Virus record (IMG/VR): IMGVR_UViG_3300011952_000033
Strand: one strand, 5' to 3'
DNA: 4,335 nucleotides
From: a virus
Lineage: Duplodnaviria > Heunggongvirae > Uroviricota > Caudoviricetes
The position numbers were made by a program, and so were the translations under genes. A model generated the notes under the pieces. The model was not told the origin of the DNA, made no database searches, and worked only from the letters and a program-made list of their open reading frames with translations. Positions 1-4,335 of the stretch are shown here, piece after piece. Within the stretch, counting starts at the first letter, position 1. Each line of letters opens with the position of its first letter.

Positions 1-60
1 TATTGGATCAATGAGTGAGTCAACATAATATTAAACTCACAATTATAAATCAGCCATATA

Positions 61-1518
61 TTAGGAGCGCCAAAAAAAACCTGAAAACAATATAATAACA
101 GGATAAATTTCAAGGCGACCAAGAATCATAGCTATGCACATTAAACATTTTGCAATGTCATTAAGCACTCCGAATGACGATGCAGTAGCCCCAAAACCTA
201 ATCCCATATTATTAATACATGCAGCCACTGTTGCAAATGATGTAAGAAAATCATATCCCATACCATTTAACACCAGTATAAAAAACGCCGTGAAGAGAGT
301 ATAAAGAAAAAAGAAACTCCATACAGACCTCATTACACGATCTGTAACTATCTTCCCTCCTACATTTACACTCAACAACGCTCTGGGATGAGAAAGCTGA
401 TTTATCTCGTGTTTGCTTTGTTTGAAAAGTATAAGAAATCGAAGTGACTTAATTCCACCACAAGTTGAACCTATACATCCCCCAAAGAAACTTGACAACA
501 GCAAAAACACTATCGTGTGCGTGGGCCAACTTGCATAATCCTGCGTAGCTAAACCATTATCAGTGAGCATGGAGCTGGCAAGAAAAAACGAATGAATAAA
601 ACTTCCATGCAAGTCATACATACCTATATGCCAGACCTGGAAAGAGGTAACAATGATCACCCCTAAGGCTATTAACAGAAAGAAACGAAGTTCAATATCT
701 CTGATTAAAGGTTTTATCGTTTTCCTGCTAATAACAATATACCAAAGAGTGAAGTTGAAAGCCGATAGCAGGGAAAAAGAACCAGCCACCAGCTCAACCA
801 AATAGTTATTAAAATATCCGATACTCTCGCTATGAGTTGAGAAACCACCAAGCGAAACTGTGGAAATCCCGTGACAAATAGCATCAAACAAAGGCATTCC
901 TGCAAGTCTATAACAGACAATACAAGCAATACCTAATAAAGAATAAGTTATCCACAGTGTCCGTGACGTATCGGCCAGGCGGGGAGTGAGTTTGTCATCC
1001 TTAAATGGCCCCGGCATTTCTGACTGATAAAGCTTTGCACCACCAATACCCAATAATGGCAATACAGCAACCGCCAGAACAATAACTCCTAAACCACCTA
1101 TAAAATTTAACTGTGACCGATAGTACAAATATGCCCGAGGTAATGAACTAACATCATCAATTACAGTTGCTCCTGTTGTTGTTATTCCAGAAACCCCTTC
1201 AAACAGAGCATCAATGAACGTTAAATTAAGTTCTGAGTCAATCCATAAAGGGAATGCACTAATAACAGAAAACAAAATCCAAAACATTACAATTATAATA
1301 AACCCATCACGGGTACGTAATTGAATGCCAGATTTCTTAGTTGTATACCACGCTCCGCCACCAATGCAAAAAAATATAACGAAAGTTATAAAGAAAACGA
1401 ACAGGCTTTTTTCTTTATAAAACAATGCTACAACCATTGGTGGCAACATTGAAAGACTATAGAGCCAAACCAGGAACCCACACATATGAGTAACAACTCT
1501 TACATGAGATGTATTCAT
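61..1518 (-). CDS. trkG: Trk-system potassium uptake protein TrkG (TrkH/KtrB superfamily)
   Basis: Long ORF 61..1536 (track start is TTG). Translation is a polytopic membrane protein with four glycine-containing pore-loop segments typical of TrkH/KtrB (GITTTGATV, STVSLGGFS, LTDNGLATQ, NNMGLGFG). N-terminus from the ATG at 1516-1518 (MNTSHVRVVTHMCGF...) matches my recollection of E. coli Rac-prophage TrkG (485 aa). Alternative TTG start at 1534-1536 is preceded by AAGGTGG (plus 1543-1549). Confidence 0.9.
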   Translation of the reverse strand: MNTSHVRVVTHMCGFLVWLYSLSMLPPMVVALFYKEKSLFVFFITFVIFFCIGGGAWYTTKKSGIQLRTRDGFIIIVMFWILFSVISAFPLWIDSELNLTFIDALFEGVSGITTTGATVIDDVSSLPRAYLYYRSQLNFIGGLGVIVLAVAVLPLLGIGGAKLYQSEMPGPFKDDKLTPRLADTSRTLWITYSLLGIACIVCYRLAGMPLFDAICHGISTVSLGGFSTHSESIGYFNNYLVELVAGSFSLLSAFNFTLWYIVISRKTIKPLIRDIELRFFLLIALGVIIVTSFQVWHIGMYDLHGSFIHSFFLASSMLTDNGLATQDYASWPTHTIVFLLLSSFFGGCIGSTCGGIKSLRFLILFKQSKHEINQLSHPRALLSVNVGGKIVTDRVMRSVWSFFFLYTLFTAFFILVLNGMGYDFLTSFATVAACINNMGLGFGATASSFGVLNDIAKCLMCIAMILGRLEIYPVIILFSGFFWRS

Positions 1519-1655
1519 ATCTAAATATTCTTTCAATTATAACCACCTTGCTGCAATATTATGATTATACTGTATAAAATTTAACTCCTCTTAGATCTTA
1601 CTTCACTGTTCCTTATGAAACAATCATCAAAATGAATCATATTGTAGTTAAGATT

Positions 1656-2120
1656 TTACTTTAAACACTGCTCGGTTATGTATTGCTGAGCACCTTCAAG
1701 TTGGGCCTGCATCATTACCAGTCGTTCCCGGAGGGTGAAATAATCCCGTTCAGCGGTGTCTGCCAGTCGGGGGGAGGCTGCATTATCCACGCCGGAGGCG
1801 GTGGTGGCTTCACGCACTGACTGACAGACTGCTTTGATGTGCAACCGACGACGACCAGCGGCAACATCATCACGCAGAGCATCATTTTCAGCTTTCGCAT
1901 TAGCTAACTCCTTCGTGTATTTTTCATCCAGTGCAGCAACATCACGCTGGCGCATCTGCATGTCAGTAATTGCCGCGTTCGCCAGCTTCAGTTCTCTGGC
2001 ATTTTTGTCGCGCTGGGCTTTGTAGGTAATGGCGTTATCACGGTAATGATTAACAGCCCATGACAGGCAGACGATGATGCAGATAACCAGAGCGGAGATA
2101 ATCGCGGTTACTCTGTTCAT
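1656..2120 (-). CDS. Rz: Rz i-spanin (inner-membrane spanin subunit)
   Basis: ORF 1656..2132 (track start is GTG). From the ATG at 2118-2120 the product ([55 protein letters not shown]...) is near-identical to lambda Rz as recalled: N-terminal TMD plus coiled-coil periplasmic domain. Start overlaps the R stop as ATGA. Stop TAA at 1656-1658. Confidence 0.9.
1715..1900 (-). CDS. Rz1: Rz1 o-spanin (outer-membrane lipoprotein spanin subunit), embedded in +1 frame of Rz
   Basis: 61-aa ORF wholly inside Rz in a different frame; ATG at 1898-1900. Signal peptide with lipobox ([20 protein letters not shown], then T at +2), proline-rich PPPPP segment. Near-identical to lambda Rz1 as recalled. Confidence 0.9.
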
Positions 2121-2614
2121 TGCTGACCCCACAAACAGATTTCACGCTCAATCTCACGACGAGTCATGAGACCTTTCCATTGCTTACCGCCAGCATATGT
2201 CCAGCGACGTAGCTGATCACATGCGCCTTTGATATCGCCCTGGTTTATTTTGCGAAGAAGCGTCGATGTTCTGAAATTGCCAGCGCCCACGTTGTAAACG
2301 AACGAGTAAAGAGCGCCGCGCGTTGTTTCCGGTATATCGACTTTGATGTACGGGTTAATTTGTCTGGCGACCGTGGCAAGGTCTTTATTCAAGAGTGTTT
2401 TGCATTCTGCTTTGGTATACGTTTTACCGAGCATGATGTCTTTTCCTGTATGCCCGTGACATACAGTCCATACACCAACAATATCTTTGTATGGTATGTA
2501 GCTGACACCTTCCAGACCATCGTTACCACTTGGGCCAGTGATTAACACTGATGCTATAGCAATTGCTCCGCCACCAATAGCAGCAGCAACGACTTTTCGT
2601 AATGATGGAGGCAT
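2117..2614 (-). CDS. R: SAR endolysin (phage-21 R-type lysozyme, GH24 family)
   Basis: 165-aa ORF, ATG at 2612-2614. N-terminal weakly hydrophobic Gly/Ala-rich signal-arrest-release segment ([20 protein letters not shown]) followed by a lysozyme domain ([25 protein letters not shown]...). Essentially matches phage 21 R as recalled. Start overlaps S stop (TAATG). Confidence 0.9.
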
Positions 2615-2829
2615 TATTCACCTCTCGCAGCCTTGCGCTTATCTTCTTTAATCTTGAAATAAAGGTTTGTCAGGTACGTCAGCAGGCCAAATACCAGACT
2701 ACCCAGCACACCGATTGCAGCCCACTGTGACGGAGTTACTCTATCGAGCAACTGTAAAAACCAGTAGCCGGCACTGCCTGCGGAGGTGCCGTAGGCAATG
2801 CCTGTTGAAATTTTGTCCATGGATTTCAT
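2614..2829 (-). CDS. S: Pinholin / antiholin, phage-21 S-type with dual start (71-aa form from Met1 at 2827-2829; 68-aa form from Met4 at 2818-2820)
   Basis: Track ORF 2614..2886 starts at an upstream GTG, but the ATG at 2827-2829 is preceded by GGAGGTGAGG (SD). From there the product is [71 protein letters not shown]: two TMDs and a charged C-terminus, matching phage 21 S (S71/S68 dual-start MKSM motif) as recalled. Stop TAA at 2614-2616. Confidence 0.9.
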
Positions 2830-2928
2830 AGCCTCACCTCCGCACGGAACGGATGGCATAGTTATTATGTGTAGGCTTTCAGACACATCAATCAGAGCCT
2901 TAATTGATATATATGCTGGAGACGATGC

Positions 2929-2955
2929 AATATAAAAAGCTCGCCGTAGCGAGCT
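2929..2955 (-). terminator. Rho-independent terminator between lipoprotein genes and holin
   Basis: On the minus strand: AGCTCGC-TACG-GCGAGCT (perfect 7-bp GC-rich stem, 4-nt loop; plus 2938-2955) immediately followed by TTTTATATT (plus 2929-2937). On the plus strand the hairpin is followed by an A-rich run, so it is oriented for minus-strand transcripts. Confidence 0.6.
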
Positions 2956-3080
2956 AATAAAATGTATTTCTCTGATATTATGTTTATTTGTATTAGCTCA
3001 GACTTGACATCACAGGTTTCGTATATAGAACATCATCAAATCTGTCAGTTTGCTATGAATGAGATATAGTAATTGAAGAG

Positions 3081-3476
3081 CTAACCTCGCATGTCAAAGC
3101 CAGATTTCTGAAAATCTCTGTAGACTTCCGGATTGTTGAAGGCCGGAAATTTGGCTTTATGAGCTGCGGACTTTATCGCTTCGCAATAGGCTTTATCACC
3201 GTTACTGGTAGATATTTTTAACGCCGTGCCATCCTGAGAGAATTCCATATGCAACCTGCATTTTTTCCCTTTCCAGTTATGCGGCTCATCAAGTTTGGCA
3301 TTAATTGCAGCTCTGATTCCCCGCGCTTGCGCCCCCCATTCATCCTGATCATCCCAGCGTCCTGAACTGCAACTACCTGTAGCAGTAGTTTTGTGGCAAT
3401 CTGAAGGGTGTAAAGGTGTGCATCCCGCAACAAAACCGACCCAAAAAGTCAACATAACGATTTTCTTTAATCCCAC
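3081..3476 (-). CDS. Putative outer-membrane lipoprotein with divergent TolA-C-terminal-domain-like region (paralog of the 3627-4055 gene)
   Basis: 131-aa ORF. GTG start at 3474-3476 preceded by GAGGAG at 6-nt spacing (plus 3484-3489). Signal peptide with lipobox MGLKKIVMLTFWVGFVAGC, T at +2. The C-terminal approx. 85 aa (GKKCRLHMEFSQDGTALKISTSNGDKAYCEAIKSAAHKAKFPAFNNPEVYRDFQ) share the motif skeleton and two conserved Cys with the neighbouring gene and with TolA domain III. Stop TAG at 3081-3083. Start codon choice (GTG vs internal ATG at M8) is uncertain. Confidence 0.75.
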   Translation of the reverse strand: MGLKKIVMLTFWVGFVAGCTPLHPSDCHKTTATGSCSSGRWDDQDEWGAQARGIRAAINAKLDEPHNWKGKKCRLHMEFSQDGTALKISTSNGDKAYCEAIKSAAHKAKFPAFNNPEVYRDFQKSGFDMRG

Positions 3477-3626
3477 TTCTTGCTCCTCAATCCATTAAAA
3501 TCTCAGCAATAGTAGTTGTTACGTCCGCCACTGGCTCAGAGCTGACTATCCGCTAAATTTAGCTCAGTGCCGTAGCTGTGTCAGAACAAACCTAAGCCGA
3601 AACCGTTTATTACAAAACAATAAATA

Positions 3627-4055
3627 TCAGGGTTTAAAATCCAGCACCCCATTTTGAAATACTTTATATACTTCCGGCGAAGGGGGGGCAGGTATATCAG
3701 CATTCTTTATCGCATTCATCGCTTCACGACATAAATCGAGGTCTCCACTTTCTCTTTTAACCTCCAGTAGAAGGCCATTCGGGGCCATATGCATTCTCAG
3801 TGTACACTCTTTTCCTGAATACTTACTCGCATCCCCGAACTGTTTTTCGATGGCGCTCTTGATTTGATGGGCATACAGACGGATATCCTCACTAACATCA
3901 GAAGTACGTTCAGATGAACTCACATACTGTGTCTCTATTGCTTTATCGGAGTAATATGATGTACGGTCATGATAATTTGTCGATACAGCATCAGTGCACC
4001 CGATAATAATCCCACTAATAATCAACGTAAGAATTGATGCGCTACGAAAACCCAT
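3627..4055 (-). CDS. Putative outer-membrane lipoprotein with TolA domain III-like C-terminal domain (TolA mimic)
   Basis: 142-aa ORF. ATG at 4053-4055 preceded by GAGGA (plus 4059-4063). Signal peptide with lipobox MGFRSASILTLIISGIIIGC, T at +2, then a Ser/Thr/Tyr-rich acidic linker. C-terminal approx. 83 aa (YAHQIKSAIEKQFGDASKYSGKECTLRMHMAPNGLLLEVKRESGDLDLCREAMNAIKNADIPAPPSPEVYKVFQNGVLDFKP) align without gaps to my recollection of E. coli TolA C-terminus (YAGQIKSAIESKFYDASSYAGKTCTLRIKLAPDGMLLDIKPEGGDPALCQAALAAAKLAKIPKPPSQAVYEVFKNAPLDFKP), roughly 60 percent identical by eye, both Cys conserved. Confidence 0.85.
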   Translation of the reverse strand: MGFRSASILTLIISGIIIGCTDAVSTNYHDRTSYYSDKAIETQYVSSSERTSDVSEDIRLYAHQIKSAIEKQFGDASKYSGKECTLRMHMAPNGLLLEVKRESGDLDLCREAMNAIKNADIPAPPSPEVYKVFQNGVLDFKP

Positions 4056-4084
4056 TTTTCCTCACATATGTCATATAGTAAAGG

Positions 4085-4114
4085 ATTATATATACCGTTG
4101 TTTTGGACGCTCAA
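4085..4114 (-). promoter_or_regulatory. Candidate sigma70 promoter for the lipoprotein pair
   Basis: Minus strand reads TTGAGC (plus 4109-4114), 18-nt spacer, TATAAT (plus 4085-4090); alternatively TATATA with a 16-nt spacer. It sits about 30 nt upstream of the lipoprotein ATG at 4055 in an AT-rich context. Sequence-only prediction. Confidence 0.4.
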
Positions 4115-4172
4115 ACAGCGAATCAGATCAAATAAAACGCACATTTGTTAACATTTACACAAAGTCTGCGTG

Positions 4173-4193
4173 GGATATTCTGAAAGAATATCC
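4173..4193. promoter_or_regulatory. Perfect 9-3-9 inverted repeat GGATATTCT-GAA-AGAATATCC, candidate operator or RNA hairpin
   Basis: Read directly from sequence at 4173-4193. No flanking U-tract on either strand, so not a canonical intrinsic terminator. Lies about 60-85 bp upstream of the candidate -35. Confidence 0.35.
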
Positions 4194-4335
4194 ATAATGT
4201 GGAGAGAATCTATTGAAGTGCATGGTGCCGGGTGCCTCCCGGTGCTCTGGCCGAACTGGCAAACTCCAGAGCGGTGACCTTTAGACTCCGAGCATCGCAC
4301 GATAGTTACGATGCCAGTTCTCCGCGTGCGCTAGC

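Follow-up and report, generated by a model that had tools for sequence, protein, structure and literature searches.

A perfect 21-bp palindrome upstream of prophage TolA-like lipoprotein genes as a probable stem-loop in the 3′ tail of an STnc100/PasD-type small RNA gene

The palindrome and its genetic neighbourhood

Does a perfect palindrome ahead of a prophage lipoprotein gene serve as a protein-binding site in the DNA, or is it the image of a stem-loop in an RNA? The question is raised by an inverted repeat in the window, the whole stretch of 4,335 nucleotides of Caudoviricetes DNA (IMG/VR record IMGVR_UViG_3300011952_000033) that was analysed here. The first-pass annotation of the window had described a perfect 9-3-9 repeat at positions 4173-4193, and the repeat search recovered exactly this element, GGATATTCT-GAA-AGAATATCC, with arms of 9 nt, a spacer of 3 nt and 100% complementarity. 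The arms cannot be extended, as g4172 and a4194 are non-complementary and so are the outer loop bases. With up to three mismatches allowed, the pattern occurs only once in the window.

The palindrome had also been called improbable by chance, a claim that holds in part. A perfect 9-3-9 repeat appeared in 2.2% of 2000 dinucleotide-preserving shuffles of the window, but perfect 9-bp arms with any loop of 3-10 nt appeared in 12.4% of them. The element is thus unusual, not extraordinary; it is moderately unlikely to have arisen by chance, and the statistics alone leave chance open. Wider-spaced perfect repeats of 9-12 nt are also present elsewhere in the window. One of these, in the trkG coding region at 1386-1420, has 12-nt arms (TTATAAAGAAAA/TTTTCTTTATAA) around an 11-nt spacer and is therefore longer than the palindrome in its arms.

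All genes of the window are on the minus strand, in the order STnc100-like small RNA, two TolA-domain lipoproteins, holin, endolysin, Rz/Rz1 and trkG. The window is an E. coli Rac-type lambdoid prophage: positions 1-4244 are 99.8% identical to an E. coli Rac-type prophage region, and 441 E. coli genomes cover at least 80% of this part. Pfam confirms the holin, lysozyme and Rz genes; the holin is of the P21 type and Rz1 is embedded in Rz. No tRNA or tmRNA was found in the region.

Lipoprotein 1 (3627..4055, minus strand) has 142 amino acids, the lipobox IIGC and a TolA C-terminal domain (PF06519, 82.6 bits), and lipoprotein 2 (3081..3476, minus strand) has 131 amino acids, the lipobox VAGC and the same domain (54.6 bits). 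A sigma-70 promoter, TTGAGC-18 nt-TATAAT, with 10/12 matches to the consensus is predicted for lipoprotein 1 at 4114-4085 on the minus strand. The palindrome lies about 60 bp upstream of its -35 element, so the earlier placement of the palindrome upstream of the lipoprotein promoter was right as far as this predicted promoter is concerned. Between the lipoprotein module and the holin gene is a canonical intrinsic terminator, AGCUCGCUACGGCGAGCU followed by UUUUUAU (2938..2955, minus strand). The tandem lipoproteins between the small RNA and the holin are moron-like, with a promoter and a terminator of their own. A plausible role for them would be interference with Tol-dependent colicins or phages; a full-text literature search for TolA-domain prophage lipoproteins gave nothing obviously relevant, and the terms occurred in no title or abstract of the papers returned. 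Over the start of lipoprotein 2, at 3425-3495 on the minus strand, there is a sub-threshold Rfam match to STnc350 (22.2 bits, E = 0.84), which is probably due to chance.

Homology to STnc100 and the terminator position

STnc100 is a small RNA that was found on Hfq in Salmonella and is carried by prophages of E. coli and Shigella. It has been described as a prophage-encoded relative of the Northern-validated PasD, itself discovered on Hfq by RIL-seq, and its typical site is near Q and the holin-lysozyme operon (bioRxiv 10.64898/2026.05.13.724894). In Stx2 phages STnc100 is located 75 nt downstream of stx2 (PMC12370729), and in an EHEC EDL933 lysogen 11 copies are transcribed according to RNA-seq, one of them confirmed by Northern blotting (PMC5331693).

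A cmscan search of all Rfam families matched the minus strand of the window at 4166-4335 to STnc100 (RF02076) with 30.9 bits and an E-value of 4.7e-4. This is below the gathering score of 47 for a match that is cut at its 5′ side by the window edge, and the window alone scores so low because its 5′ half is of a Pantoea type. The E. coli strain ECC-1470 and the phage mEp460_ev081, which are 100% identical to the window at 3600-4244 and have the identical core and tail, match RF02076 over the full model length with 114 bits; strain M9, with a tail of the same type, reaches 80.5 bits.

The conserved core of the STnc100-like RNA, CACCGGGAGGCACCCGGCACC (4224..4244, minus strand), forms a CCGGG/CCCGG helix with a 5-nt loop. 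Together, the core hairpin CCGGG-AGGCA-CCCGG and the 3′ strand of the closing helix, CACCAUGC, match the model exactly at 4216-4244 on the minus strand, with a posterior probability of about 1.0. Then follows a spacer of 30 nt, AUGCACUUCAAUAGAUUCUCUCCACAUUAU (4194..4223, minus strand), with partial likeness to the canonical STnc100 spacer (ATGCA, ATAG, CTCTCCA). The palindrome itself is aligned onto the terminal hairpin of RF02076 with a posterior probability of about 0.9-1.0. The consensus of this hairpin is aagGcccCuC.UccGgaGgggCcuu and then UUUaU, and the window has a 4-nt gap at UUUa.

The genetic setting is also that of STnc100. In annotated relatives the order is Q, tRNAs, DUF3927, STnc100, tolA-like genes, holin and lysozyme, so that the element is on the late-gene strand of a lambdoid prophage, with the Q region before it and the lysis cassette after it; its place between the Q/tRNA region and the holin fits the setting described for STnc100 and PasD. 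The RNA thus shares with STnc100 the core hairpin, the closing helix, the site between Q/tRNA and holin-lysozyme, the late strand and the core-to-hairpin distance. It differs in the terminal stem, which is AT-rich with 3/9 G-C pairs, has a 3-nt loop and lacks a U-tract, whereas the consensus is GC-rich and followed by UUUaU. PasD1 and PasD2, the pathogenesis-associated RNAs of EPEC E2348/69, are reported to be structural relatives of STnc100 and are likened to the present RNA by their description only; the neighbours described for PasD are LpxR and a sialate esterase, in contrast to the TolA-like lipoproteins of this locus. When the sequence upstream of the small RNA was inspected by eye in relatives, no clear sigma-70 promoter was seen.

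The homology of the window to E. coli ends at 4244, i.e., at the core, which is therefore a mosaic joint. The last 91 bases (4245-4335) hold the 5′ side of the RNA body, truncated where the window ends, with the helix GAACUGGCA/UGCCAGUUC on the minus strand, and are not of the E. coli STnc100 type. They match a Pantoea latae prophage, Pantoea phage AH07 and one IMG/VR contig, and have no match in any complete E. coli genome. In the Pantoea-type matches the RNA-like element is near the cI/cro immunity region. Searches for the junction at 4193-4274 in complete E. coli genomes, IMG/VR contigs and GTDB representatives found no copy. The homology changes precisely at the shared core of 22 nt. This end of the window is therefore a chimera of the assembly, joined at a repeated k-mer, or else a rare recombinant formed in nature.

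In one relative (L002 4098-4238, corresponding to about 4197-4337 of the window, plus strand) RefSeq has a partial pseudo "hypothetical protein" CDS antisense to the small RNA gene, whose low end is about 4 bp from the palindrome. This is probably a spurious call over an unannotated non-coding RNA. STnc100 also occurs in arrays, with five copies downstream of the tolA-like gene in strain STEC17-190 (L238 1-2894) and three copies flanking the tolA-like gene in strain M9 (L236 1870-3227); these arrays look like punctuation between moron modules.

The 21-nt core was found in more than 120 IMG/VR contigs (L117-L233), with about 100 distinct 3′ tails and several 5′ halves. Some of these core-bearing loci score only about 30 bits on RF02076. 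The STnc100-type family thus appears to be broader than the Rfam model, with the core acting as a recombination joint. We compared 100 distinct tails downstream of the core, taken from the IMG/VR and E. coli loci, by a strict terminator rule (contiguous stem of at least 5 bp with at least 3 G-C pairs, loop of 3-8 nt, at least 5 T in the next 8 nt). The rule was passed by 49 of the 100 tails and by 7% of random 130-nt windows from the same loci, and in 44 of the 49 passing tails the stem starts 24-39 nt past the core. By eye, some 20 further tails have long-loop terminators at the equivalent place. The palindrome starts at +30 nt past the core, the modal position, and in a MAFFT alignment it shares its columns with the canonical terminator stems.

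At this position the GC-rich stem and U-tract that characterize both STnc100 and intrinsic terminators are absent from the palindrome, with 3/9 G-C pairs in the stem and CACGCAGAC next to it. The stem has 33% GC and a predicted energy of -9.5 kcal/mol, against -16 to -20 kcal/mol for the canonical terminators of the family. A standard terminator at the palindrome was considered and rejected, as the terminator scan did not call it and made its sole call in 2800-4335 at 2955-2938. The first-pass annotation had already stated that no U-run adjoins the palindrome and that it is not a standard terminator, and both statements agree with these data: on the transcribed minus strand there is no T in the next 8 nt. 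As judged from the +30 position and the shared columns, the palindrome fills the terminator slot of the family; with its AT-rich stem and no T-run, it is no canonical terminator. Like intrinsic terminators, the palindrome is a stem-loop at the 3′ end of a small RNA, in a slot that holds a hairpin with a T-run in 44 distinct relatives; unlike them, it has an AU-rich stem and lacks a U-tract.

We therefore regard the palindrome, on balance and from comparative sequence data and structure prediction, as probably the DNA image of a stem-loop in the 3′ tail of an STnc100/PasD-type small RNA, in the slot of the terminator, with a function that would be exerted at the RNA level. Transcription of the small RNA would proceed on the minus strand, as does that of the lipoprotein and lysis genes. 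The plan of the family consists of the core, a variable spacer of about 25-40 nt and a hairpin, which is mostly a GC-rich Rho-independent terminator; in the lineage with the palindrome, the slot is instead occupied by a 9-bp hairpin that is perfectly paired and AT-rich, has the loop UUC and lacks a U-tract. Such a hairpin would probably not terminate transcription efficiently by itself, and may rather be a structural or stabilising hairpin at the 3′ end of the small RNA; its role may thus be one of 3′-end stabilisation or of leaky termination. The second option of the first-pass annotation, a processing hairpin in a read-through late transcript, is correct in that the transcript heads towards the late genes, but the palindrome is placed in the 3′ tail of an STnc100-family RNA.

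Folding, variation and competing explanations

In RNA, the palindrome gives hairpin 1, GGAUAUUCU-UUC-AGAAUAUCC (4173..4193 on the minus, i.e., transcribed, strand). Both the MFE and the centroid structure predicted for the whole RNA include it, in the window context as well as in that of ECC-1470, and its pair probabilities are 0.8-1.0 in three RNA contexts. Folded alone, it has -9.5 kcal/mol and a z-score of -4.6. One nucleotide further downstream starts hairpin 2 (4137..4171, minus strand), whose imperfect stem, ACGCAGACUUUGU...ACAAAUGUGCGU, has two bulges and closes a loop of 10 nt; its energy is -9.3 kcal/mol. Directly 3′ of it is the U-run UUUUAUUU (4130..4137, minus strand), located 36-43 nt downstream of the palindrome. 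Hairpin 2 and this run look like a candidate weak intrinsic terminator, and the 3′ end of the small RNA may be generated there or by processing of read-through transcripts. Any read-through into the TolA-like lipoprotein genes in a lysogen would then be expected to end at the strong predicted terminator at 2955-2938, before the holin gene.

It could also be proposed, overlapping with the stem-loop reading, that hairpins 1 and 2 and the U-run act as one composite terminator, at which the small RNA would end near 4130 and which would shield the lipoprotein promoter from transcription arriving from upstream. This would be in line with the close spacing of the three elements, with the energy of the 81-nt segment that holds both hairpins (-18.8 kcal/mol, z = -2.9), with the start of the predicted promoter about 15 nt past the U-run and with termination in the equivalent region being normal for members of the family. 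Such a composite was, however, not called by the terminator scan. Hairpin 2, with its bulges and long loop, is only as stable as shuffled sequence (z = -0.84), and its pair probabilities of 0.4-0.66 fall to 0 in the M9 variant, in which it is abolished. Moreover, the U-run does not directly follow hairpin 1, which could therefore not release the transcript itself. We consider this arrangement very unlikely.

The variation at the locus bears on the view that the palindrome is a functionless, hairpin-shaped relic free of selection, left when the terminator was replaced or decayed as the TolA-lipoprotein module recombined onto the small RNA core, and that it is perfect only because its copies (at least 99% identical) are recent. 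At the palindrome locus, 783 of 890 E. coli records have an identity of 99% or more, which makes their conservation uninformative. We searched IMG/VR for variants by the flanks only. The exact palindrome was present in 97 of the 99 flank-anchored loci, and the other two (L234 and L235) share one change, GGATCTTCT in the 5′ arm. Strain M9 has the variant TGATATTCT, and a decayed copy on the plasmid pECOR29 has GGATATACT. All changes in these four loci are confined to a single arm and none is compensated. With so few variants, none of them compensated, the covariation test is without power, and selection on the stem is neither shown nor excluded. The substitution rate of the palindrome, about 0.001 per site per locus, is between those of the upstream and downstream flanks, so no special constraint is detectable on it.

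These uncompensated variants and the flank-like rate are what a relic would be expected to give, as are the mosaic joints on both sides of the core and the 12% of shuffles with a perfect 9-bp repeat and a loop of 3-10. Against it, the hairpin starts exactly at the modal slot, +30 past the core, keeps G-C pairs at the base of the stem like the Rfam consensus, and has a perfect 9/9 stem, which is more than a decaying terminator should retain. The module is also widespread, with a near-complete match in 782 E. coli genomes, and the palindrome is intact in nearly all flank-anchored loci. A relic is thus possible, although unlikely.

The preferred proposal of the first-pass annotation, in which the palindrome is an operator in duplex DNA and a dimeric phage or host regulator bound there controls the promoter of the TolA-like lipoproteins, found no support. 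Like phage operators, the palindrome is dyad-symmetric, here perfectly so, lies between genes and precedes a promoter; the centres of its half-sites are spaced by 12 bp. An operator would be expected to overlap the regulated promoter or to be within about 90 bp upstream of it. The centre of the palindrome (4183) is some 105 bp ahead of the start site that would follow from the predicted -10 element (4090-4085). With this predicted promoter, the distance would be beyond the usual positions of activators and repressors, and a hairpin and a T-run are situated between it and the predicted -35 element. The regulon check suggested earlier gave no second copy of the palindrome in the window or in the complete phage mEp460_ev081 (45,865 bp, up to three mismatches allowed), in which the sole extra half-site is within a coding region. 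No regulator gene is present in or beside the module, and one arm is mutated in M9 and on the ECOR29 plasmid. In contrast to phage operators, the palindrome is thus a single copy at about -105 from the predicted start site, has no cognate regulator nearby and is unconserved across diverged modules.

A lack of conservation of the palindrome in otherwise homologous prophages had been named in the first-pass annotation as evidence against its own proposal, and such a lack is seen. Among about 98 E. coli genomes that have a tolA-like gene at 80-90% identity, one, STEC17-190, was examined. Its tolA-like gene is 81-82% identical to that of the window and has an unrelated upstream region with neither the palindrome nor STnc100. 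In favour of an operator, or of some other link to the lipoprotein module, the tail that bears the palindrome always precedes the same lipoprotein gene, although the 5′ halves of the RNA attached to it vary (two common types and the window's own type). Plain genetic linkage is enough to explain this association; a role of the palindrome tied to the lipoprotein module is conceivable.

The other observation in favour of an operator comes from unrelated marine phages, where the same 18 bases are placed, as a 12-3-12 repeat (GTGGGATATTCTnnnAGAATATCCCAC), over a TTGACA/TAGAAT promoter. The site is found at 4376-4427 of contig L012 and in other marine contigs (L003, L007, L019, L025, L038, L043, L053, L076, L093, L100, L101, L106, L112 and L113), between the TTGACA -35 element and the RBS/ATG of a small ORF, and overlaps the TAGAAT -10 element. 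Such a sequence can thus occupy operator-like positions. As homologues of the palindrome these matches were rejected, as their flanks are unrelated and the site overlaps the promoter. Taken together, we regard the operator as highly improbable.

Meaning for prophage small RNAs and morons

As a stem-loop of a small RNA tail, the palindrome is a fairly ordinary feature, since the family and its genomic arrangement are already known. The only unusual point is the AT-rich terminal hairpin without a U-tract of this tail variant, and the variant is common (782 E. coli genomes). The practical gain is one for annotation: the palindrome should have no place among candidate operators, and the STnc100/PasD-type gene to which it belongs is left unmarked in genome annotations or is hidden under a spurious pseudo-CDS. 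The conserved core of 21-22 nt marks a frequent mosaic joint between prophage modules.

If the hairpin does replace the terminator, the locus would be a natural case in which a swap of the 3′ tail decides between the end of a small RNA and read-through into a moron. A bolder and quite unlikely extension is that, with the terminator swapped for a hairpin without a U-tract, the small RNA gene has become the structured 5′ leader of the TolA-like lipoprotein moron, from which the small RNA is freed by processing; an operator for a moron regulator is the less likely alternative to it. If such a leader exists, the palindrome hairpin would be the protective 3′ end of the processed small RNA, and the output of the small RNA would be coupled to the expression of an envelope lipoprotein, perhaps one for exclusion, in lysogens.
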